Origin: Patescibacteria group bacterium
Lineage (GTDB): Bacteria; Patescibacteriota; Patescibacteriia; UBA1558; GWA2-36-10
Assembly (NCBI GenBank): GCA_028718865.1
Contig: JAQUKX010000002.1
Coordinates: 8,047-72,046 of the forward strand
DNA length: 64,000 nucleotides
Direction: 5' to 3'
Shown one piece after another: positions 3,032 to 61,054 of this stretch. A program made the position numbers and the translations under genes. Positions within the stretch are counted from its first letter, which is position 1; every line of letters begins with the position of its first letter. The notes beneath the pieces were generated by a model. That model was given only the letters and a program-made list of their open reading frames with translations, did not search any database and had not been told where the DNA came from.

Positions 3032-3043
3032 TAAATAAATCCA

Positions 3044-3090
3044 GCCCAGCCCGCCACTGCATTTGCAGGGCGAGGCGGGCTGATTTTATT
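3044..3090. terminator. GC-rich hairpin between convergent rpmA and ftsX (bidirectional terminator)
   Basis: agcccgcc...ggcgggct stem with A-run before and T-run after. Confidence 0.55.
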
Positions 3091-15384: not shown

Positions 15385-15436
15385 AAGAATTATAAACAAA
15401 AGCCACCCGCCCGGCAAGCGCCGGGCGGGTGGCTAA
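15385..15436 (-). terminator. intrinsic terminator after the 1126-aa surface protein gene
   Basis: agccacccgcccgg...ccgggcgggtggct, then a T-rich run on the minus strand. Confidence 0.6.
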
Positions 15437-21388: not shown

Positions 21389-21409
21389 TGGAGCCGTCAC
21401 GCGGGCTTG
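21389..21409 (-). repeat. 21-nt direct duplicate of the tRNA-Thr(GGT) 3' end
   Basis: tggagccgtcacgcgggcttg occurs at about 21389-21409 and again as the 3' end of the intact tRNA at 21482-21502. Confidence 0.6.
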
Positions 21410-21481
21410 TTGAGCGTAGCGAAATCCCACTCTGCGGGAAATCGAATACAAAAAATAATATTATCAAATTCACTAAAGAAA

Positions 21482-21556
<75 letters not shown>

Positions 21557-21817
21557 TGAAAATAAATAATGTTTTAACCCTATACAATGAGCGTGTTTAA
21601 TTGCATTTTATCTACTACTGCCTGTCCTCCTCTGGCGGAAGCTATGACGGCAGACGAAAAACTTATTTTTATTTACTAAACTAAGAAAGTGCCTTTTACT
21701 CTTTGCCTTGCAAACACTTGTCCGCCGAATCCGCCAGCCGGCGGAGAAGACGGGAACTATAACGGCATTAGATGGCACAGCCATCCGAAGCTCTGAGTGT
21801 TAACGAGGAGCGAAAGA

Positions 21818-27992: not shown

Positions 27993-28021
27993 ATTATATC
28001 ATTTTTCCCTAATAATTTCAA
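27993..28021 (-). promoter_or_regulatory. sigma70-like promoter (TTGAAA-17-TATAAT) for scpA
   Basis: Read on the minus strand: TTGAAAttattagggaaaaatgaTATAAT. Confidence 0.5.
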
Positions 28022-28030
28022 AATAAAAAG

Positions 28031-28057
28031 AGGGGGCTCCGCGTTGCACGAAGCCCC
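28031..28057 (-). terminator. intrinsic terminator (gggggct/agccccc stem + U-tract) ending the aspS transcript
   Basis: Hairpin followed on the minus strand by CTCTTTTTATTTT. Confidence 0.6.
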
Positions 28058-28165
28058 CGAACCGCTACTGGGAGCATGGACTCCCGAATCTTACTTGTCG
28101 GGTCTAGCCCCGGTAGCGGTCTTTCTCCCTGGGGAGGGAGCTGTGTACGTAAATACCAAATAAAA
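28058..28165 (-). ncRNA. candidate structured GC-rich RNA element in the aspS 3' region (unknown class)
   Basis: 8-bp closing helix accgctac/gtagcggt encloses two local hairpins (gggag/ctccc; cggg/cccg), plus a further ctccct/gggag hairpin. GC well above background. Confidence 0.3.
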
Positions 28166-28209: not shown

Positions 28210-29637
28210 TTATTTTTTGATTGCTATTCCTAGCTCATCCAATTGCTTTTTATCCACAGAAGCTGGAGAATCAAGTAATGGATCACGACCATCAGAAGTA
28301 AGAGGAAAAGCAGTTACTTCCCGCAGATTTTTTTCTCCCAAAAGAACCATCAAGAGCCTTTCTAGTCCTGGGGCAATGCCACCATGAGGCGGAACGCCAT
28401 ATTTAAAAGCTTCAAAATAATGCTTAAACTGATCTTTTTGCTTGTCGCTAAAACCAATCAAATTCCAGACTTTCTCCTGAATTTTCATCTCATGGATTCT
28501 AATTGCTCCCCCGCCTACTTCAAAACCGTTTAAAACCAAATCATGCTGATATGATTTTACTTTGCCTGGATCGCTGTCAAGAAGCGTAATATCCTCTTCT
28601 TTGGGAGCAGTAAACATATTGTGCGCCGGACCCCAAATATCGCCAGCACCGACAAACCTATCCTCATCAGTTTGAGGCATAAACAAAGGAAAATTAAGCA
28701 CCCAAGCAAAAGCCAGCTCATTTTTATCGTTCTTGTCTTTTCTCAAATCCGGCTTATCAGTTTTGTATTTAGCCATTACCTGATCATAATCAAGCCGTGG
28801 CCAAGGATCAAAAGTGATTTTCTTTTGAGGAAAAAGCTCTTTGACCATACTTGTAAACATTTTTTCTACCAAATTCAAAATATCCTCTTGTTTGACAAAA
28901 GACATTTCCATATCCAGCTGATAAAACTCGCCTGGAGAGCGGTCAGCTCGGGCATCTTCATCTCGAAAACAAGGAGCTATCTGAAAATATTTTTCCATGC
29001 CCGCTACCATTAGGAGCTGTTTGTACTGCTGAGGCGCTTGAGGCAGGGCAAAAAACTTACCCGGATGCAGACGAGAAGGCACTAGATAATCCCTAGCCCC
29101 TTCGGGAGTAGATTTGGAAAGTATAGGTGTCTGAATTTCTACAAAATCATTTTTGGTCAGCCAATTTCTTAAATAAGCAAAAACTTTGTGTCTAGCTAAT
29201 AGATTGTTTTTCATTCTTTGATGGCGCAAATCCAAATAGCGATATTTGAGTCTCAGCTCTTCATTGGCTTGACGATCTTCATTTTCAATCTCAAAAGGCG
29301 GAGTTTCCGCTTGAGATAAAATGCTGATTTTTTTGGCCAAAATCTCTACTGAACCAGTCGGCAAATCAGGATTTATTTGCTTGCCTCCCCTTTTTTGCAC
29401 CTCACCTTCTATAGCCAGCACAAATTCAGGACGAATTTCTTTTATCAGTTCCAAATCTGTCTCTTTCAGTTCCTGAGGAACTATCACCACCTGTGCCAAG
29501 CCCCAACGGTCTCTGAGATCCAAAAAGATAATTTTACCCATATTTCGACGGGCATTGACCCAGCCTTGGAGTAAAACTGGCTGACCAACCTGACTGACTG
29601 TTTCTATTGTTTTTGTTCTATTCATATAATTTTTCAT
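28210..29637 (-). CDS. aspS: aspartyl-tRNA synthetase (short, non-GAD form)
   Basis: N-terminal OB fold, QLDMEMSF, class II motifs ending GGIAPGLERLLMVLLG..REVTAFP. Best match is the AspRS pattern, not LysRS. Confidence 0.85.
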   Translation of the reverse strand: MKNYMNRTKTIETVSQVGQPVLLQGWVNARRNMGKIIFLDLRDRWGLAQVVIVPQELKETDLELIKEIRPEFVLAIEGEVQKRGGKQINPDLPTGSVEILAKKISILSQAETPPFEIENEDRQANEELRLKYRYLDLRHQRMKNNLLARHKVFAYLRNWLTKNDFVEIQTPILSKSTPEGARDYLVPSRLHPGKFFALPQAPQQYKQLLMVAGMEKYFQIAPCFRDEDARADRSPGEFYQLDMEMSFVKQEDILNLVEKMFTSMVKELFPQKKITFDPWPRLDYDQVMAKYKTDKPDLRKDKNDKNELAFAWVLNFPLFMPQTDEDRFVGAGDIWGPAHNMFTAPKEEDITLLDSDPGKVKSYQHDLVLNGFEVGGGAIRIHEMKIQEKVWNLIGFSDKQKDQFKHYFEAFKYGVPPHGGIAPGLERLLMVLLGEKNLREVTAFPLTSDGRDPLLDSPASVDKKQLDELGIAIKK

Positions 29638-29706
29638 GCTGAATATATTTCAGCGTCTCGTTAATTTTATACTAGATTCTGAAACAAGTTCAGAATGGCA
29701 TGCTTG

Positions 29707-29819
29707 TGGAGCCGAGAACAGGAATTGAACCTGCGACCCGCGGTTTATCGACCGTAGGGAGACCCCGCTCTTTGGGCGGTTTACGATACCGCTGCTCCCC
29801 GCCTGCCTGCGCCTAGGTC
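29707..29819 (-). pseudogene. disrupted tRNA-Thr-like gene: intact T-arm/acceptor 3' half and CGT anticodon arm, but a 35-nt insertion and a displaced 5' end
   Basis: 3' part GCAGG-TTCAATT-CCTGT-TCTCGGC-T-CCA. Upstream GCGGT-ATCGTAA-ACCGC, then a 35-nt insert repeating AACCGC. The matching 5' acceptor GCCGAGA-TA-GC is about 270 nt away at about 29966-29976. Confidence 0.45.
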
Positions 29820-29895
29820 TGGAGCCGACTATCGGACTTGAACCGATCACCTACGGTTTACGATACCGTCGCTCTACCAGATGAGCTAAGTCGGC
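29820..29895 (-). tRNA. tRNA-Thr (anticodon CGT)
   Basis: GCCGACT acceptor, D-arm GCTC..GAGC, anticodon arm ACGGT-ATCGTAA-ACCGT, T-loop TTCAAGT, CCA encoded. Confidence 0.85.
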
Positions 29896-29997
29896 GCAAG
29901 GCCTAGGCGGGCAGGTACCAAACTGACCTCGCCCGACTCGCCTACGGCAAAGCCGTGGCGGGCGGGCTATCTCGGCAAAATCGCCTTCTTAAGAGAT

Positions 29998-31287
29998 TTA
30001 AGGCCTTAATCTATAAATAGTCCGAGGAAAAGGAATGGTTTCTCGGACATGCTCCAGCCCACAAACCCAACCTACTATCCTCTCCAGTCCAAAACCAAAT
30101 CCGCCATGTGGCACGCTACCGTATTTACGCAAATCCAAATACCATTCAAAATCCTTTTGGGGTAATTTATGTTCTTTTATTCTATCAAGCAAAACCTGAT
30201 AATCATCCTCACGTTGTGAACCGCCAATAATCTCTCCATAGCCTTCTGGTGCCAATAAGTCAGCACATTCTGCCAAATTCTGATCAGAGGCATTTCTTTT
30301 CATATAAAACGCCTTGATTTTGGCTGGATAATTGGTAATAAAAATCGGATTATCAAACTGTTTGGTGAGCATTGTCTCGTCATCTCCGCCCAAATCCTCA
30401 CCATCTTTGATGTCGCTACCTAAGGCTTGCAATTTTTTGATAGCCTCACTATGGTTCATCTTATAAAATGGCTTACTGATATTTTCCAAAGGCTTGATGT
30501 CGCGCTCCAAAATAGCTAATTCGTTTTGATTCTTTTCCAAAACCAACTTAATCATAAAACGAATCAACTCTTCCTGAATCTGCAAATTCTGCTCCAAATC
30601 AACAAAAGCCATTTCCGCGTCCATCATCCAAAACTCAGTCAAATGACGGCGAGTTTTGGATTTTTCCGCCCGAAACACTGGCCCAAAATCATAAACCCGA
30701 TTATGAGCAAAAATAGCTGCTTCTATATAAAGCTGTCCGCTCTGGGAAAGATAGGCCTTGGTATCAAAATAATCTATTTCAAAAAGCTCAGTCGTACCCT
30801 CGCAAGCACTAGGAGTAAGAATAGGCGAATCTATTTTGATAAAATTATTCTCATCCATATAGCGATAAGTAGCTTGAATAAGAGTATTTCTAATACGCTG
30901 AACAGCCCACTGACGGCTAGATCTCAACCAAAGATGCCTATTGTCCAACAAAAAATCCACTCCGTGCTCTTTTTTGCCTATGGGATATTCATCCGCTATT
31001 TGATAAAATTCAAAGTCCTTGACTTGAATTTCATATTCGTCTTTTTTGGGATGCTTACTGACCAATCCTCTTACTTTGACTGAGCTTTCCAAGCTTATTT
31101 TTTTACTCTCAGACGCTTTTTCAGCTGATAATTCGCTTTCATTGACAATCGCCTGCACAAAACCCGTACCGTCGCGTAAATGCCAAAAAGCAATCTTGCC
31201 CGAAGAACGATGATTGGCCACCCAGGCGCTTATTTCCACTTCTTGGCCAACAAATTTAGCTATATCTTTAATAAAAATTTTCTCCAT
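29998..31287 (-). CDS. asnS: asparaginyl-tRNA synthetase
   Basis: YDFGPVFRAEKSKTRRHLTEFWMMDAEMAF and GEIIGGSQRE...HGGFGFGLERIV align closely with the AsnRS pattern. Confidence 0.85.
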   Translation of the reverse strand: MEKIFIKDIAKFVGQEVEISAWVANHRSSGKIAFWHLRDGTGFVQAIVNESELSAEKASESKKISLESSVKVRGLVSKHPKKDEYEIQVKDFEFYQIADEYPIGKKEHGVDFLLDNRHLWLRSSRQWAVQRIRNTLIQATYRYMDENNFIKIDSPILTPSACEGTTELFEIDYFDTKAYLSQSGQLYIEAAIFAHNRVYDFGPVFRAEKSKTRRHLTEFWMMDAEMAFVDLEQNLQIQEELIRFMIKLVLEKNQNELAILERDIKPLENISKPFYKMNHSEAIKKLQALGSDIKDGEDLGGDDETMLTKQFDNPIFITNYPAKIKAFYMKRNASDQNLAECADLLAPEGYGEIIGGSQREDDYQVLLDRIKEHKLPQKDFEWYLDLRKYGSVPHGGFGFGLERIVGWVCGLEHVRETIPFPRTIYRLRP

Positions 31288-31465
31288 ATTGACTATAAAA
31301 AAATTAAGATAAATAAATAATAACTAAATTAAGGATATTTTACAAGTGCCAATTTGACTAAAAATTGACAAAATGTTTTAATCAAGACACCCCACGCTCT
31401 GCTATCTGCCTCTGGTGGACTTATGTCCATCTTTGGCGGATGACGGACAAACAAGGAGGCCAGCA

Positions 31466-31708
31466 ATGGTTCTCAACCTGCTTGACAGCCTGAGGAGTCT
31501 GGGGCTGGAAAAAAGTCTGGTTCTTTCCATCGTCCAGCAACTCCACGATCACGGTCGGTCAGAAATCTGTCTGCCCGACACCCAGCTTCCCGAACCGCTT
31601 CTGAGCGGTCGGGACTGTCCATTAGGAAACGGATTCCTCATCCGCGTCCTAGAGTCTGCGCCGCCGCGCAACGGCTATACAACCATCGAGGTTGTTGACG
31701 CTTCCTAA
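31466..31708 (+). CDS. small hypothetical protein (80 aa) in a GC-rich islet
   Basis: ATG preceded by AAGGAGG with a 6-nt spacer. In frame with the longer GTG-initiated ORF 31415..31708. Hairpin plus T-tract terminator directly after. Confidence 0.55.
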   Translation: MVLNLLDSLRSLGLEKSLVLSIVQQLHDHGRSEICLPDTQLPEPLLSGRDCPLGNGFLIRVLESAPPRNGYTTIEVVDAS

Positions 31709-54759: not shown

Positions 54760-55626
54760 TTAAACTTTTACTGGGCTAAGCTCTTTTGGAAAAATCATTA
54801 CCTCTCTGCCGATTTTAGATTCATATGCGTTGTGTTGAATAGCAAAACCCCTCAGGCGCATTGATGCATATAAATTTTTAATATACGGCACATCATCGTA
54901 AGTCATGATCCATTTTTTGAATGATGATTCTCCCAAAAATTCTGATAGATTTTCGTGATCTTTGTTGCTGTAATGGTTTAGATATAGTGACTGTCCTTTC
55001 TGGAAATATGGCGGATCAAGAAATATAAAATGTTGATTTTTATTTTTGCGTCCTTCCATTTTTTTTAACAATTCTATTCCGTCCAGATTGTATACTTCAA
55101 TTTTATTACGAAATTCTTTAACCTTTTCCAATCGGTCAATGATAGTCTGTTTGGTAAAGCGTGCGTTTACTTTCCATGTTCCGGATTGATCAATTCCTCC
55201 TATCGGTCCGCCATTCATGATCCCTGAACGGTTTGTTCTGTTTAAAAATAGAGTGGCAAATGCAAGTTTACGGTCGCTTTTTGTAGATGTATAAATTGTT
55301 TTTTGTCTTCTCCATTCCTCTATGGTAACCTCGGTCCGCTTTATCTTACCGATTAAATAATCGGCATCAGAAACAGCTATTTTCCAAAAAGTAAAAATTG
55401 CTTTATCAAGATCATTGATAACAATTTTTTCTACTTTTTTGGCAAATAGTAGAGCAAGCGAAGCGCCCGCTCCTCCCGCATATGGTTCCACCAAAACAAC
55501 TTTTTCTTTTTGATCGAAGTTTTTCTCTATTGCCTCAAGCAGTTTATTGGCAAGACGGGTCTTCCCGCCAGGGTAACGCAGAGGGCTGGAGAAACCCGAT
55601 ATTTTTTTGTCAGTTTCTTTTTTCAT
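54760..55626 (-). CDS. Dam-like (D12-class) N6-adenine DNA methyltransferase
   Basis: Motif I region PLRYPGGK; motif IV DPPY (FLDPPYF). Confidence 0.8.
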   Translation of the reverse strand: MKKETDKKISGFSSPLRYPGGKTRLANKLLEAIEKNFDQKEKVVLVEPYAGGAGASLALLFAKKVEKIVINDLDKAIFTFWKIAVSDADYLIGKIKRTEVTIEEWRRQKTIYTSTKSDRKLAFATLFLNRTNRSGIMNGGPIGGIDQSGTWKVNARFTKQTIIDRLEKVKEFRNKIEVYNLDGIELLKKMEGRKNKNQHFIFLDPPYFQKGQSLYLNHYSNKDHENLSEFLGESSFKKWIMTYDDVPYIKNLYASMRLRGFAIQHNAYESKIGREVMIFPKELSPVKV

Positions 55627-56972
55627 TTTTTTGCGTGCGTAATGTTCAACATCGCTCCGATGATAATCGACATTCCTACAGTTTGCTCAAAATTTGCAGA
55701 ATTGGCATAGTTATGCGCACCGGATTGCAATAACTGAATCAAACCCTTTGCGTTAATAATACTGTTGTTCGCCAGGGTTGTCTTCTGGTCTTGTGTCAAT
55801 TGTTTTTTTGCATTTTCGTAATTGGCATTCACGTAATCCGCTATTCCTTTTGTTTTCGGAGTAGCAGATTCGATGAGTAATCGTAATGACATTCTGATCA
55901 ATGCAGGAAAATTTTTTGATAATTTGTCCGTATTTTTTGAGTAAAAGTCATATAGGTCCAAAACGTCCATATAGATATTATTTGCGTCTCCTTTTTTCAG
56001 CACCAAATCCTGTCCGAATAGTGCTTGCACTTTATTCTTTTCTCTCGCTGTTTTCCTTGGCGCAGGCAGTTCTGCTTTCTTCTTTTCTACCTCGGTACTC
56101 TTCTTGGTAACAGAAAAACTGGGGTCTATCTCTGCAAAGACATTTTCAACTAGCCAATCTTGAGTAGCTTGTGCTGGTACCTTGTGCGGATCTGTAATAT
56201 AAGGAACCAAGAGCTTTAGTTTTTTGTCTGATTCATTTCGGTTTGTAAATGTTATATCCCCTTTATTATTGGTTGAGTAATCCAAAAGTTTCTTTCCATT
56301 TGTACTTAGAATCAAACGGTCTATTTTGTTGAAACCAGACTTGAGTAATTCTTCCTCATCTTTGTCTGTCCTGATTTGTTCTAAAATCTGTTCGTAGAAA
56401 AATAGTTTCTCAAGCTCTTTCTTAAAGAGCGTAGGCGTTACCCCATACTCGGAAGAAGCAGAATCAATATCATACTCCCCGGAATCTATCAAATTTCTGT
56501 ACATTCTGAGTTTTTGTAATACTTGCCAAGGTTTTAGAAGCTGATTGACATGAATATCCCAAATTTCTTTCTCTGCTTCCTTGCGAGAGGGGGCAATGGT
56601 AATCTTTACATTCTTGAGTTCTTGTTTATTAGTAATCTTATTTAGTTCCTCTAGTTCCTTTTTATCCCGAGCATTTGGTGCAAGCTCGGGTTTAAGTAAA
56701 AGTTGGCATGCTGCTAACCGACGATTTCCGTCCAAGACTATTGTCCGTCCGTTTTCTTTACAGACAATCGCAACGGCACTTCTGTGGTAGCCATTATTTG
56801 CAATATTTCTCGCGATTCTCAAAATATCCTCTTTATCCAAAAGATAGTTCCTAACTTGAGTAATATCGTTTTGATCTCTGACATGTTTTGGTAGGCGTGG
56901 ATTTTGCAAATCCAATTCTAAAGTTGCAACATCAACAATGTCATCCTTCCAATTGTTTCTTGTTTTTGCCAT
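55623..56972 (-). CDS. ParB/Srx-fold (ParB-like nuclease domain) protein with about 350-aa uncharacterised C-terminal extension
   Basis: N-terminal QNPRLPK ... VLDGNRRLAA. 4-nt overlap (ATGA) with the Dam-like gene. Confidence 0.6.
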   Translation of the reverse strand: MAKTRNNWKDDIVDVATLELDLQNPRLPKHVRDQNDITQVRNYLLDKEDILRIARNIANNGYHRSAVAIVCKENGRTIVLDGNRRLAACQLLLKPELAPNARDKKELEELNKITNKQELKNVKITIAPSRKEAEKEIWDIHVNQLLKPWQVLQKLRMYRNLIDSGEYDIDSASSEYGVTPTLFKKELEKLFFYEQILEQIRTDKDEEELLKSGFNKIDRLILSTNGKKLLDYSTNNKGDITFTNRNESDKKLKLLVPYITDPHKVPAQATQDWLVENVFAEIDPSFSVTKKSTEVEKKKAELPAPRKTAREKNKVQALFGQDLVLKKGDANNIYMDVLDLYDFYSKNTDKLSKNFPALIRMSLRLLIESATPKTKGIADYVNANYENAKKQLTQDQKTTLANNSIINAKGLIQLLQSGAHNYANSANFEQTVGMSIIIGAMLNITHAKK

Positions 56973-57072
56973 ATACGATTATTTATATTATAGCGAGTTT
57001 TTGAATATTTTTCGATAGCATAAATTTATTTTTACTCCGGAAACTTACCGCCCGAAATATCAAAAGCTCGTA

Positions 57073-58236
57073 TTACCGATTACCTTTTGCCCGATTATGG
57101 GTTTTACACAGCATCTCACAATTTTTTACATCAGTAGCACCACCCTTGCTCCAAGCCGAAACATGATCGGCGTCCATATCTGCCAAAGTCCAAATTTTAT
57201 CCTTGTTTGCATCATGACCAATCGCGCAATGTGAGCAGTTCGAAATACCTTTCTTTTTTGCGGCGGCAGTTTGAGCCTCATACACCGAACGTTTTGTTGA
57301 GTCTTCAAATACTCGAACTTCAAGCAATTTTGTTTCTACTTCTCCACCTAAAACATATTCGAAAATACCTTTACGACTTTTCACGAAACCATCGGCATAG
57401 AGTTTCTGAACCTTAGCAGAAACTGTTGCGGGGTTATATTTTTTCTTGTGGTACGTCTGATACAGCCTGTTCCATTCAAGACCCTTCATTTCACTTTCAA
57501 CGTCTGTGAAGGTAGTCGAAACCCAATCGATAACAGTCTCGAAATGCTTTTTTAGTTCAGTGATGTTTTTGTCGTTACGATGTTTACTCATGTAGCTATC
57601 GATTTCTCCATCAGAGACCCAATCTAAAGCCCGTTCTAAATATGCTTGACGTTTGATATCACCTGCGATGTAGGTACTCCATTTCTGAATGTTGGTATTT
57701 TGACTATTACTAAATTCTTCGCGAGCGCGAGTGACAAATGGCCCAGAATATACTGCATTAAGAATCTCTTGTTCGGTTAATGGTACTCCAGCGATATTAA
57801 TAGTCTTAAACCAATCCTTGATCTCAGGCTCGTCACCTTTACACAAATACACTAACAATCTGGCGTCCATTATTTGCTCGCGCTGACTAGTAGCCATACC
57901 ACTGTAATATTGTTCATGACCATTCTTATCTTTGACAGCAAACTTGCCTGTCACGAACCGACCGATGCTAGTGATGCGTTGCTGTCCATCGAGCACTTCA
58001 AATTTATCAGTACCAACTTGGTTAAAATAAATTAAACCTATTGGGTAACCTTTCAAAATTGAGTCAATTACGGCAACATCACGTTTGCCATCAGCGTAAA
58101 TGTAGTTACGCTGATACTCTGGCTGAATAGTTAGTTTACCCGAGAGACCAAACAACCCTTTTCCTTCGAGTTCGTTATAGACGAAGCCGTCGCAAACTTC
58201 TTTTATCGTGATGTCATTTTTTAGTGTGGTTTTCAT
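57073..58236 (-). CDS. DUF262 (DGQQR) + C-terminal HNH nuclease fusion (GmrSD-like modification-dependent restriction family)
   Basis: QPEYQRNY and LDGQQR motifs. C-terminal CSHC...DADHV...N...CKTHN HNH. Confidence 0.8.
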
Positions 58237-58238
58237 AA

Positions 58239-59429
58239 TTATTTTTTCTTGTGCTTAATTAAGACTCTCTGATAAACTTTTTCTCTCAACCCATCGCGGA
58301 GTACTACGCCACTAGCATTCAAATCGTACACACCTTTCTTACCAAACTTATCTAAATATGCTTGCTTGCACTCCGCAGAGGTGTAGACTTTTGTTTTTTG
58401 CTTGTATAAATCCTCATTTTCACACATTCCCACAATTTCAAACTGCTCAGGGGAATACTTATCAAGAAAACTAATTGGGACACCCATGATGTTTTTGTAA
58501 TCACTCGGAATATTTTTTACCAACGAAACTTCAATTGCGTTATAGTTCTCGTATTTTTCAAACTCCTTGTTTGTTGAGAACTTAATAACATCCGATTTTT
58601 TCATCAAAGGAATCGGTTGATGAAGTCGTCCGTGATCAAGGTTCGTGAACCAACGAACACCTTGAACTCTTGTTATGTATACTTTTTTACCTTTTTCATC
58701 GGTTTTAATTTCACGAACTTGATCTAGGTTTGCAACAGCTTCTGGAATCTCATAAAACATTGCACCGCCATTAACTCTTGCGTTGTTTCCGAGCCATACC
58801 TTATTTTCTTTTATCATTGGAAAAACTTCCTTATAGGTTATTGCATTGAGATTACCAATGATTAGAAAATGTTTTTTATGATCAAAAAGTTGCGTAATAT
58901 ATTCACGAAATAAACTAAATGGAGGATTGGTGACTACGATGTCAGATTGTTTGAGCAACTCGACACACTCGTCGCTTCTAAAGTCGCCATCACCCTCAAG
59001 CGGAGTCCATTCGTTGTTTTTGTTAGTTCTAAGCTGTTGGGCAATATCTTCTAGTGTAAAAGAGCCGTCGCCGTCCACATCACCAACTTCGTTGATAATA
59101 AATTTATTAGCGACAATTTTTGGTCGCCCTTTGACAGGTTCGAGGGTAATATCATCACCAAATAGTCCTAGTTGAGTATTTGCAACTGGTGACGGTTTGT
59201 AGCTAGTTGCAATAAGTCTTTTCAACCCTAATCTTTTAAAATTTAGGACGAAGTAGCGAAAGAAATTGCTTTCAAATGGGTCGTCGCAGTTGCTGTAAAC
59301 CACCTTACCTTTAAAAGTATTTGGGTCATACTCAAGATAAGACTCGACTTCTTTTTGGATATCTAAAAATTGAGTATAAAATTCATCATTTTTTGCCTTC
59401 TTTGCATTTGTAAGATTTTTGTTTGCCAT
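58239..59429 (-). CDS. N6-adenine DNA methyltransferase (NPPF motif IV)
   Basis: N-terminal DEFYT; VVTNPPFS catalytic motif. Stop overlaps the start of the DUF262-HNH gene. Confidence 0.75.
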
Positions 59430-59578
59430 AAATTTATTTTTCGCTCTCAGCTCGAGCTTTTAACAAAAATATAGTTTCGGACTTCAATTTCGCCCGAGCC
59501 CAGTCTTTTTTGGCTGTTTTGATAGTCATTTGATGGTTTGTCATGTAGTGAAAATAAAATATCGGGAAAGTGCCCAAT

Positions 59579-61054
59579 TTAAGAGGAGGAAATGCCCTTA
59601 TCTGTTTTATTATCAACCCCCCTTGAAAATAAACCCTTAGGAACCTCCTGGCCGGGCTTCCGGTAATAACTGTCCTTTTTAGCCTTGCCAATTTTTTCCA
59701 ACAAGCCCTTATCAACCCAACCACGTAATAACCGGGACATTTTCAAAACATCACTAACTCCGGTTATCTCCCGTGCCTTTTTATTGATAATGCGGTAATT
59801 TTCATCAAGATATTTACTGACGGTATCCCAGTATTCAATCTTATGCATATTGAGAAGTAAGAGTAGAACTGAATTCGGTCTTAGTGTTGGAGGAAAAAAT
59901 AATGGCTCGTATAGATTTTGTTCTTTCATAACCTTAAACATACGATCAACACCTTCGCCGATGTCAAGATTAGGTGCCGTCTGGAAACGGTTCAACGTTC
60001 GTAGGATTAAAGGATTACGAGCAAAACGCTCGGCCCTGATATTTTCAACAGTGATATGGCCGGGGTAAGTTCCGGGACTCTCAACTTCAACACGATCATC
60101 AAAAAACCGCACCTGAATGTCATCTTGCACAAAATAATTCCTATGAATAACCGCATTGGTTATTGCTTCTTGAAATGCCCATTCCGGTATCAAAAAGGTT
60201 GGATTGAAAGAAGCTCCGCTTAATTTGGGAGGTGAACTTTTTACAATTCCCCGAAAATACTCAATAGCTTGTTCAATTTGCTTCATCAGAGGCCCTTCGA
60301 TGGTGAATGGCCGAGTGACAAAGTTTGGCTTACCGGTGTAAGTCGGTTTTGTTCCGTAATAATGAGAAACTTTTATTCCGCATTTACTTGTTAGGGCGAC
60401 TGAGGGGTTCTTCCCAAAAAGCAAAAGTCCGGCTTTAGTCAGCTCGTATTTGCCATTACCACCGACGGCCAGGCCGTTGTCTTTCAAAAACTGCCAATCA
60501 TCTAAGCCTGTGCTCGAGGTATCCTTTTTATATTGAGCGAGGAGATCGTGGTCTAAATTTTCAAGGGAAGTAGTGCCGGATTTTTCGCTCTCGTACTTAA
60601 TTGCACCTTTTTCGTATTTAAGGCGCATTATTTCTGTCGAACCAATCTTTACATTTTGTCTCCCTTTTCTGACAAAAGTATCCCCTCGTTTAAGTGAATG
60701 AACATCATTACTCTTTTTGATATTGAGTACCAAGAGCTTGTCCGCCTGTCCTTGAGCATTCGTGATATCAAGCTCGAATTTTCCCCACAGTATAAGCGGC
60801 GGCTCAATTTCTTTATCAATTAGCTTAAGAAAATCGGAAACATTATCTGGATTTTCGCTGATTCCTAGAAGCCGTTTGTCCCCTTGGGCTTTAGCCGGAT
60901 CTTCCAAACCGACTACTATAAAACCACCGTCCGCATTAGCGAAACCGACTACTGTTTCCAAAAAGTCGGCCGGTCTAATCGCGGCTCGTTTACATTCAAA
61001 AGTTTGCCACTCTTGGGTATCCAGAAATATTTTTACTATGTCTTTATCTTCCAT
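59579..61054 (-). CDS. Schlafen/AlbA_2 DNA-binding domain + HATPase_c_4 ATPase protein
   Basis: N-terminal FANADGGFIVVG pattern; C-terminal AITNAVIHRNY...VESPG pattern. Confidence 0.75.
   Translation of the reverse strand: MEDKDIVKIFLDTQEWQTFECKRAAIRPADFLETVVGFANADGGFIVVGLEDPAKAQGDKRLLGISENPDNVSDFLKLIDKEIEPPLILWGKFELDITNAQGQADKLLVLNIKKSNDVHSLKRGDTFVRKGRQNVKIGSTEIMRLKYEKGAIKYESEKSGTTSLENLDHDLLAQYKKDTSSTGLDDWQFLKDNGLAVGGNGKYELTKAGLLLFGKNPSVALTSKCGIKVSHYYGTKPTYTGKPNFVTRPFTIEGPLMKQIEQAIEYFRGIVKSSPPKLSGASFNPTFLIPEWAFQEAITNAVIHRNYFVQDDIQVRFFDDRVEVESPGTYPGHITVENIRAERFARNPLILRTLNRFQTAPNLDIGEGVDRMFKVMKEQNLYEPLFFPPTLRPNSVLLLLLNMHKIEYWDTVSKYLDENYRIINKKAREITGVSDVLKMSRLLRGWVDKGLLEKIGKAKKDSYYRKPGQEVPKGLFSRGVDNKTDKGISSS

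Follow-up and report, generated by a model that had tools for sequence, protein, structure and literature searches.

In a 64,000-nucleotide stretch of a Patescibacteria metagenome-assembled genome (contig JAQUKX010000002.1; the whole stretch is referred to below as the window), the 360-nt spacer separating the asparaginyl-tRNA synthetase (AsnRS) and aspartyl-tRNA synthetase (AspRS) genes carries, on the minus strand, a composite of two tRNA-Thr(CGT) genes, one of them complete and nested between the pieces of the other. ARAGORN and Rfam report a single tRNA in this spacer, the nested copy (B), which is also the only uninterrupted tRNA-Thr(CGT) in the window. Exact-match location recovers the second copy (A) in full: all 76 nt are present and ordered, in four pieces spread over 29976-29707 and separated by three inserts (i1, i2 and i3). 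The layout, read in the direction of A, is as follows.

29966..29976, minus strand: A nucleotides 1-11 (acceptor 5' strand, U8, A9 and the first two D-stem bases), GCCGAGATAGC
29927..29965, minus strand: insert i1, GC-rich hairpin of 39 nt that splits the D stem between A11 and A12
29916..29926, minus strand: A nucleotides 12-21 (remaining D-stem 5' strand and D loop), TCAGTTTGGTA
29798..29915, minus strand: insert i2, 118 nt between positions 21 and 22 (20-nt arm, B, 22-nt arm)
29896..29915, minus strand: left arm of i2, the cassette, CCTGCCCGCCTAGGCCTTGC
29820..29895, minus strand: B, intact nested tRNA-Thr(CGT) with encoded CCA (ARAGORN; Rfam RF00005, 62.4 bits)
29798..29819, minus strand: right arm of the cassette, GACCTAGGCGCAGGCAGGCGGG
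29782..29797, minus strand: A nucleotides 22-37 (D-stem 3' strand, anticodon-stem 5' strand and anticodon CGT), GAGCAGCGGTATCGTA
29746..29781, minus strand: insert i3, 36 nt in the anticodon arm
29707..29745, minus strand: A nucleotides 38-76, AACCGC...CTCGGCTCCA (anticodon-stem 3' strand, variable loop, T arm, acceptor 3' strand and CCA)
29998-31287: AsnRS gene
28210-29637: AspRS gene

An initial annotation of this sequence had described an intact tRNA-Thr(CGT) nested in a disrupted one and had assigned to the latter a 5' acceptor strand lying on the far side of the intact gene. Both points are borne out. The 11-mer GCCGAGATAGC occurs once in the 64-kb window against an expectation of 0.02, lies on the right strand and in the right order, and is identical to nucleotides 1-11 of the uninterrupted tRNA of L001/L265 (the labels L001 to L280 denote loci from related genomes or metagenome contigs that were compared with the window). 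The 3' part had been thought intact through CCA, and nucleotides 38-76 are indeed 100% identical to L001/L265. The annotation was only partly right in stating that the disrupted copy lacks a local 5' half: nucleotides 1-11 do lie beyond B, but the D-loop piece and the D-stem 3' strand are in place, and three inserts, not one, separate the pieces. Within the D-loop piece, TCAGTTTGGTA has one extra T relative to TCAGTTGGTA of L001/L265. The four pieces (1-11, 12-21, 22-37 and 38-76) are exactly complementary, with neither gap nor overlap; three inserts have come to lie in a 76-nt gene and no exon base is lost. When the pieces are joined ARAGORN calls a tRNA-Thr(CGT), and when i3 is left in, the program reports a 36-nt intron at the canonical position 37/38.

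Insert i1 consists of CCGCCCGCCACGGCTTTGC followed by CGTAGGCGAGTCGGGCGAGG and is predicted to fold into a hairpin. The left arm of the B cassette shares 80% identity with the 5' half of i1, and the right arm can be aligned to its 3' half; i1 is thus a copy of the cassette arms without cargo. Insert i3, initially counted as 35 nt, measures 36 nt. It had been described as duplicating AACCGC at 37/38, a placement that agrees with ARAGORN's; yet the repeat that bounds it is the 8-nt TAAACCGC, and the position is ambiguous from 35/36 to 43/44, the exon of nucleotides 22-37 being extendable to 29776 with i3 placed at 43/44. No type-A tRNA with 15-45 inserted nucleotides following the anticodon stem turned up in a metagenome scan, and i3 is therefore without a known sibling.

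By its gene content the window is bacterial, and a tRNA-Tyr elsewhere in it has the long variable arm typical of bacteria; the AsnRS matches a protein from a 'Patescibacteria group bacterium' metagenome-assembled genome at NCBI with 100% identity, Komeilibacteria and other Parcubacteria being the nearest named relatives. We fetched the locus downstream of AsnRS from related genomes. In the closest relative (L001/L265; AsnRS 97% identical in amino acids) the same site holds an uninterrupted A, matching the joined pieces at 76 of 76 positions with one D-loop T fewer, and both i1 and i3 are missing. Uninterrupted type A is also present in L003, L266, L268 and L270. Because relatives hold an uninterrupted A at this locus, A is the resident gene, and the three inserts would be gains in the window's lineage (or losses elsewhere). 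Other relatives present different combinations. Type B stands alone in L002, as the sole tRNA-Thr(CGT) of that locus, and is identical to the window's B at 75 of 76 positions. A further type, D, is found alone in L259 and, followed by a 3' remnant of A, in L261. In the Komeilibacteria loci L262/L263 a lone type A is flanked by arms homologous to those of the window, with no outer fragments. The history of the locus is one of tRNA-Thr(CGT) types replacing one another and leaving debris behind. In the A remnant of L261 (2880-2925), a GC hairpin of 17 nt (GTCCCGCTTGGCGGGAT) stands in for the T arm of equal length, a further example of a GC-rich hairpin within the remains of a tRNA.

The interval between AsnRS and the tRNA, only 21 nt long in the window, is occupied in some relatives by a small open reading frame (ORF): L001/L265 2387-2713 encodes 108 amino acids with no Pfam match, and L266 2517-2729 encodes 70. 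The small ORFs of these two relatives are further evidence that this spacer is an insertion hot spot.

The cassette that interrupts A has counterparts in other Patescibacteria. We searched metagenomes for anticodon arms of tRNA-Thr(CGT) in which the universal A21 is missing before the D-stem 3' strand; 14 loci were returned, the relevant ones being L125, L126, L127 (=L137), L128 (=L138) and L135. L125, L126 and L127/L137 have the window's architecture: host sequence up to GGTA, then CCTGCCCGCC, 9-11 nt, a complete tRNA-Thr(CGT), 7-8 nt, GGCAGG(C/T)GGG, and host sequence resuming at GAGC. The window's junctions (29916/29915 and 29798/29797) fall exactly between host nucleotides 21 and 22, and this insertion point is shared by the window, L125, L126 and L127 along with the outer 10 nt of both arms; the arm interiors and the tRNAs vary. 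The first 10 nt of the left arm (the CCTGCCCGCC end) are identical in L125, L126 and L127/L137. The last 10 nt of the right arm read GGCAGGCGGG in the window, L125 and L126, and GGCAGGTGGG in L127, where a single C-to-T change keeps a G:U pair. In every cargo-bearing locus the cargo is a complete tRNA-Thr(CGT) (ARAGORN, Rfam), and the rejoined hosts are tRNA-Thr(CGT) as well (ARAGORN), in the following pairs.

Window: host type A, cargo type B
L125: host type B, cargo type C
L127/L137: host type B, cargo type C
L126: host type B, cargo type A

L125 belongs to the Zambryskibacteria, a group other than that of the window's organism. Of the explanations put forward at the outset, a tRNA gene split by a tRNA-bearing segment is the one that these comparisons bear out: relatives carry an uninterrupted A, and the same cassette sits at the same nucleotide in other Patescibacteria. 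The recurrence also bears on the integrity of the assembly. The window comes from a metagenome-assembled genome and tRNA genes share short repeats, so that a chimeric join of two strains' tRNA alleles could be imagined; we consider this very improbable indeed. The architecture and the unique arm sequences are found in independent assemblies from different projects, L127/L137 and L128/L138 each represent two assemblies of one locus, and the arms are present in neither of the parental allele types.

The remaining loci are degenerate. In L135 a tRNA 5' part running to GGTA is followed by a cargo-less arm-type hairpin at 21/22, by GAGCAA, and then by a truncation; in L128 related hairpins lie beside a 3' tRNA fragment. 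Taken together, the host copies make up a decay series: those of the window and L125 are pristine, that of L127 has a C3:U70 mismatch and a U11:G24 pair, that of L126 has lost its T stem to overwriting from the cargo, and those of L135 and L128 are truncated, while in L261 a remnant of A persists downstream of a different tRNA. Gene conversion from the inner to the outer copy is visible in L126 and L127. What looks like compensation in the anticodon stem when the hosts of L125 and L127 are compared was discounted as evidence of selection, as the host arm of L127 equals that of its own cargo and points to gene conversion. In L126 (oriented minus strand, 1519-1636) a second copy of the host's first 13 nt (GCCGACTTAGCTC) lies upstream, followed by a GC-rich hairpin (CCCCCTACGTTCC...GGAACTTCGGAGGG), and suggests an earlier layer of disruption at that locus.

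Presence and absence of the cassette among close relatives can be followed in two clades, the window against L265 and L125 against L279/L280. The latter two contigs hold an uninterrupted B at the site syntenic to L125, identical to the L125 host exons at 72 of 73 positions. The presence of the cassette does not track the PrfB tree. A scan of a genome collection with the degenerate arm pattern CCYGCCCGCCNNGGCYTTGC returned only chance matches in GC-rich genomes. The three Zambryskibacteria-like contigs also share a conserved, structured-looking segment between tRNA-Thr(CGT) and prfB (L125 700-840, L279 2360-2490, L280 1260-1380; GGCC.TGAGAATTGACAACTC...GGTGG.TTCGTGGCGAGCGAAT...GGTTTTTTGT), which may be an RNA gene or a leader.

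Could the composite have arisen without a dedicated cassette, by local duplication of tRNA-Thr and loss of complementary parts from the tandem copies? A degraded tandem pair had been offered initially as the scenario that would dispose of the nesting, and it does not fit the data. The host pieces are exactly complementary, host and cargo are of different tRNA types, a nested order cannot arise by deletion from a tandem array, and the same junction and arm ends recur in independent assemblies with other host/cargo pairs. The 3' remnant beside an intact tRNA in L261 speaks for such a process, as does the tRNA-Thr(GGT) locus of the same window, which looks like its product and has a compact version in L265. 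Even so, we hold duplication and decay to be an improbable origin of the Thr(CGT) composite.

The tRNA-Thr(GGT) locus (21389-21651, minus strand) deserves description in its own right. An intact copy at 21482-21556 is flanked by fragments of identical sequence: on the upstream side, at a distance of 95 nt, its first 12 nt recur (21651-21640) ahead of a CCGCC...GGCAG hairpin, and its final 21 nt, from the T loop onward (21409-21389), recur 93 nt downstream. L265, the 97% relative, has a compact arrangement of tRNA-Tyr, 51 nt and tRNA-Thr(GGT), with no fragments, and it follows that both Thr tRNA loci have expanded in the window's lineage. With no middle part left of the outer copy, the Thr(GGT) locus is explained by nesting no better than by decay after tandem duplication or by a remnant of an attachment site (att).

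The GC-rich complementary segments flanking B, which had been noted from the start, form a helix that closes the B cloverleaf in the minimum-free-energy fold of the window's 281 nt (z = -3.6). The consensus fold of five arm-bearing sequences (RNAalifold) likewise has the cargo cloverleaf closed by the arm helix, CCUGCC pairing with GG(C/U)GGG, flush with both junctions; all 12 covarying pairs lie inside the cargo tRNA. The closing helix has about 16 bp in the window and only 6+4 bp in L125-L127, and as inverted repeats the arm ends match at 8 of 10 positions. One arm pair changes from C-G in one to U-A in the other between the window and L262, and this compensatory change argues that the arm helix is selected. 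The cargo cloverleaves are themselves preserved by compensatory changes (four pairs between L125 and L137). A scan for bulge-helix-bulge (BHB) motifs revealed, as a by-product, that the 5' half of B could otherwise pair with the 3' half of A.

No further copies of the arms were found across the 64-kb window. The bare CCGCC...GGCGG hairpin motif occurs six times there against 0.5 expected, and we rejected it as a diagnostic because at least two of these copies are ordinary intrinsic terminators: hairpins with CCCGCC/GGCGGG stems and T runs at 3043-3086 and 15400-15436, placed after genes or between convergent genes. Only the 10-nt arm ends are diagnostic of the cassette; the bare motif is not.

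Pfam scans of the 57 ORFs of the window and of small ORFs near the locus revealed no integrase, transposase, reverse transcriptase or homing endonuclease. At GGTA|GAGC there is no target-site duplication. Viral contigs scanned for the 5' junction and for the full arm pair gave only chance 14-mers and no cassette, and there is consequently no evidence for a phage origin. In L127 (9731-10411; also in L137) an IS200-like Y1 transposase gene (PF01797, E 5.5e-11) begins 2 nt from the end of the composite. This gene is flanked and internally marked by TGTTGAACACCGAGTGTTCAACA palindromes unrelated to the cassette arms and is absent from the syntenic gap of L125 and from the window; its candidacy as mobilizer was rejected. 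When the cassette was compared with IS200/IS605-derived palindromic elements (PATE) and with repetitive extragenic palindromes and their associated tyrosine transposases (REP-RAYT), we found no target duplication, pairing GC-rich ends, and no Y1 transposase in the window. A DDE-type miniature inverted-repeat transposable element was rejected, both a target-site duplication and extra copies in the 64 kb being missing, as was an origin of the cargo by retro-insertion from a mature tRNA, CCA not being encoded in the cargo of L125 or L127.

Transfer RNA genes are common integration sites, and one could picture the composite as what is left of a classical tRNA-targeting element, a phage or an island, that was later deleted while its att debris stayed in place. 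The 21-nt direct repeat of the tRNA 3' end downstream of the window's tRNA-Thr(GGT) would suit such a history, and so would the IS200-like gene abutting the composite in L127, were its hairpins not unrelated to the arms. The Thr(CGT) locus itself has no duplicated segment: its host and cargo are different tRNAs, and att-type direct repeats are absent. Furthermore, the window lacks an integrase, the 118-bp insert occupies the D loop instead of the anticodon loop, the T loop or the 3' end, and the viral contigs gave no match. We consider this origin highly improbable, somewhat more so than duplication and decay.

Our preferred interpretation, which we rate as an even proposition, is that a cassette of a recurrent kind, specific for its site and carrying a tRNA, breaks into the resident tRNA-Thr(CGT) gene and takes over its function, the cargo being made from the host's transcript. 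In the window, the resident A, of the type that most relatives keep uninterrupted here, is split between nucleotide 21 of the D loop and nucleotide 22 of the D stem by the 118-bp cassette, consisting of B and its complementary GC-rich arms. Transcription of B would run through the 5' part of A, within a single precursor, and would presumably start at the promoter of A or be shared with AsnRS. A host promoter is suggested because the cassette is too short to hold one and no sigma-70-like promoter is predicted inside the composite on the coding strand. The paired arms would close the insertion and insulate B from the homologous halves of A, allowing B to fold independently; ordinary tRNA end-processing (RNase P and 3' trimming) would free it to serve as the cell's tRNA-Thr(CGT). 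B bears every mark of a working tRNA. A would most likely be a freshly inactivated host gene heading for decay, and the splitting of its D stem by i1 counts toward its being dead. That cargo and host always are of the same isoacceptor fits better with the logic of compensating for a killed gene. Repeated rounds of insertion, each followed by decay of the outer copy, could have produced the differing tRNA-Thr(CGT) types seen at this one locus in relatives. In short, the data show an insertion, the family to which it belongs, its specificity of site and a series of decaying hosts; co-transcription, the role of the arms and the loss of A function we infer.

Several observations weigh against this interpretation. 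The exons of A are without substitution, although the window and L265 agree at only 65% of four-fold sites. A dead A would require that each of the three inserts be very young (roughly less than 10-15% of the branch), an uncomfortable demand for three separate events. Similarly, the host exons of L125 match the intact L279 gene at 72 of 73 positions while synonymous sites are saturated at about 44% identity. The Pfam scans of the 57 window ORFs turned up neither a transposase or integrase nor a reverse transcriptase or homing endonuclease, and mobility is deduced from distribution only, because there is neither a target-site duplication nor an extra copy of the arms in 64 kb. Beyond the window, the family comprises three other independent metagenome loci with cargo (four contigs) and two degenerate ones. 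Finally, i1 lies at 11/12 and not at 21/22; site specificity is not absolute. The identity of the exons can be explained without invoking function if the insertions are very recent and tRNA genes are often exchanged between lineages. A comparison of L125 with L279 gives direct evidence for such exchange: their neighboring tRNA-Thr(GGT) genes are identical at only 58 of 75 positions, whereas B is identical at 72 of 73.

The same unmutated exons invite a different view, in which the inserts are hairpin-closed intervening sequences, some carrying a whole second tRNA, that are removed from the precursor or tolerated in it, and A remains functional alongside B. We regard this as possible but distinctly less probable than replacement. 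Two routes can be envisioned. In one, RNase P and RNase Z would cut B out and the arm helix would clamp the host halves, giving a fragmented tRNA in the manner of fragmented rRNA; in the other, the arms would be removed and A21 resealed to G22 by a hypothetical endonuclease/ligase pair. Should such a route exist, which is doubtful, it would amount to protein- or structure-dependent tRNA splicing in a bacterium, unrelated to group I introns and to archaeal BHB splicing. Exon conservation in the face of diverged synonymous sites, three inserts with zero exon bases lost (unlike random damage), and a closing helix flush at both junctions all favor a functional host. So does the comparison of L125 with L127, whose arms are identical at 34 of 37 positions while the spacers cannot be aligned and synonymous sites are saturated (29-54% identical). 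In addition, i3 lies at the canonical 37/38 position with a relaxed BHB-like fold (a 5-bp stem, a 2-nt bulge, 4 bp of AUCG/CGAU, a 3-nt bulge and 4 bp), and the rRNA genes of Patescibacteria reportedly carry insertions that are missing from the mature rRNA, a precedent that we count in its favor.

Other observations speak against a functional host. No BHB motif, strict or relaxed, was found at the i1 (11/12) or i2 (21/22) junctions; the relaxed criteria give many chance matches and carry little weight, and the pairing in i3 may simply reflect partial duplication of the anticodon arm. A search of 29500-30200 against Rfam (E<=10) returned only tRNA and chance matches, with no group I, group II, small-ribozyme or other family. 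A group I or II intron was rejected on the lack of a ribozyme core by covariance model and on the size of the inserts, just 36, 39 and 118 nt. A Nanoarchaeum-type trans-split tRNA was rejected because all pieces lie on one strand, in order, within 270 nt. Neither EndA nor RtcB is encoded among the 57 ORFs of the 64-kb window, nor did the literature that we searched report a splicing endonuclease or RNA ligase for Patescibacteria. Host copies are damaged or truncated in L126, L127, L135 and L128, and the constant match of isoacceptor between cargo and host suits compensation for a killed gene better than it suits an intron. Moreover, the D stem is split by i1, and ligation would be needed for a tRNA in four pieces to work; and with tRNA genes being exchanged between lineages, exon identity can reflect recent transfer instead of selection. 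The initial annotation's second option, an intron-containing or split tRNA, has accordingly fared unevenly: the exons are unmutated, as it would require, but two of the three junctions have no BHB and no ribozyme family is matched.

To our knowledge, bacterial tRNA genes are uninterrupted save for rare group I introns. Those introns (cyanobacterial tRNA-Leu, tRNA-fMet) resemble the present inserts as non-coding interruptions of a bacterial tRNA gene, but they are longer than 200 nt, interrupt the anticodon loop and contain a ribozyme core, whereas no Rfam intron model matches here. The closest analogies are archaeal. One is with the multiple and non-canonical introns of archaeal tRNAs (BHB, EndA; e.g. 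Thermoproteales). There too, several short GC-rich hairpin inserts lie in the D arm and the anticodon arm, the inserts are related to one another (as i1 resembles the arms of i2), one of them is at 37/38, and the exons are intact. Unlike these, the present case involves a bacterium with no BHB at two of three junctions and no EndA or RtcB among the window ORFs; one insert holds a whole tRNA of the same isoacceptor, and host copies decay in other lineages. The split tRNAs of Nanoarchaeum equitans and Caldivirga maquilingensis have 5' and 3' parts that lie apart, each adjoining mutually complementary GC-rich sequence. In the window, by contrast, the parts lie in cis, 118-270 nt apart and presumably on one transcript, there is no BHB, and the intervening DNA is itself a tRNA gene.

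A tRNA-Thr locus figures in another archaeal example. In Caldiarchaeum subterraneum this locus is heterogeneous in the population, inserts and stray tRNA fragments having been gained quickly, which was attributed to mobile DNA (Sugahara et al. 2012, PMC3293823). The resemblance lies in the heterogeneity and in the inserts and fragments; the differences are that the Caldiarchaeum disruption is archaeal and involves a 1.8-kb element with a recombinase gene and BHB introns, and the cassette described here has 118 bp, no protein gene and a replacement tRNA. Analogies can also be drawn with tRNA-targeting integrative elements, which break an essential tRNA gene on entry but supply what is needed to preserve its function. 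Such elements span kilobases, encode an integrase, use the anticodon loop, the T loop or the 3' end, and carry a partial tRNA duplicate; the cassette carries a whole tRNA and uses the D loop. Lastly, bacterial rRNA intervening sequences and insertions, frequent in Patescibacteria, share with the present inserts a closing helix, a structural RNA gene as target, the same phylum, and presence or absence between relatives, but they reside in 16S and 23S rRNA and many are group I introns or encode homing endonucleases. Intervening sequences of the rRNA type are excised by RNase III without religation, a long closing duplex of about two helical turns being cut and the fragments staying associated. 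Ribosomal RNA tolerates fragmentation; a four-piece tRNA would not.

Our literature searches found no account of nested tRNA genes, or of tRNA intervening sequences other than group I introns, in Patescibacteria. What the present data describe is a tRNA gene interrupted in its D loop by a tRNA gene of the same specificity, within a cassette with conserved ends that recurs at one and the same nucleotide across distant Patescibacteria. As a replacement device, if that is what it is, the cassette would be a selfish or mobile unit of a new kind, namely a tRNA gene whose spread depends on breaking and replacing its counterpart, and the patchwork of tRNA-Thr types at one locus in relatives would be explained. 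If instead the host tRNA survives, Patescibacteria must excise or tolerate tRNA intervening sequences by a new route, which would bear on the origin of tRNA introns and split tRNAs. In either case, tRNA inventories of such genomes may be incomplete or misread, because standard tRNA finders miss the host genes.

A few other features of the window merit mention. Between AspRS and ScpA, on the minus strand at 28020-28140, lies a GC-rich block of about 105 nt with TTGACA/TATTAT promoter-like boxes and a terminator-like end. The AspRS/ScpA spacer is 90% identical to that of L265 (222 of 246 aligned positions; 65% at neutral sites) and includes a compensatory A-U to G-C change. No Rfam family matches the block at threshold, the best being BjrC68 at 22.6 bits, where the gathering score is 39, and the block probably represents an undescribed small RNA. 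A second block, about 300 nt long (31415-31708) and of higher GC content than its surroundings, lies between AsnRS and an AcrB-like gene and contains a plus-strand ORF of 97 amino acids with no Pfam or Rfam match. Farther away, at 54760-61054, a defense-type cluster encodes a D12 adenine methyltransferase, a GmrSD/HNH endonuclease, an EcoRI-type methylase and a protein with a Schlafen AlbA_2 domain.

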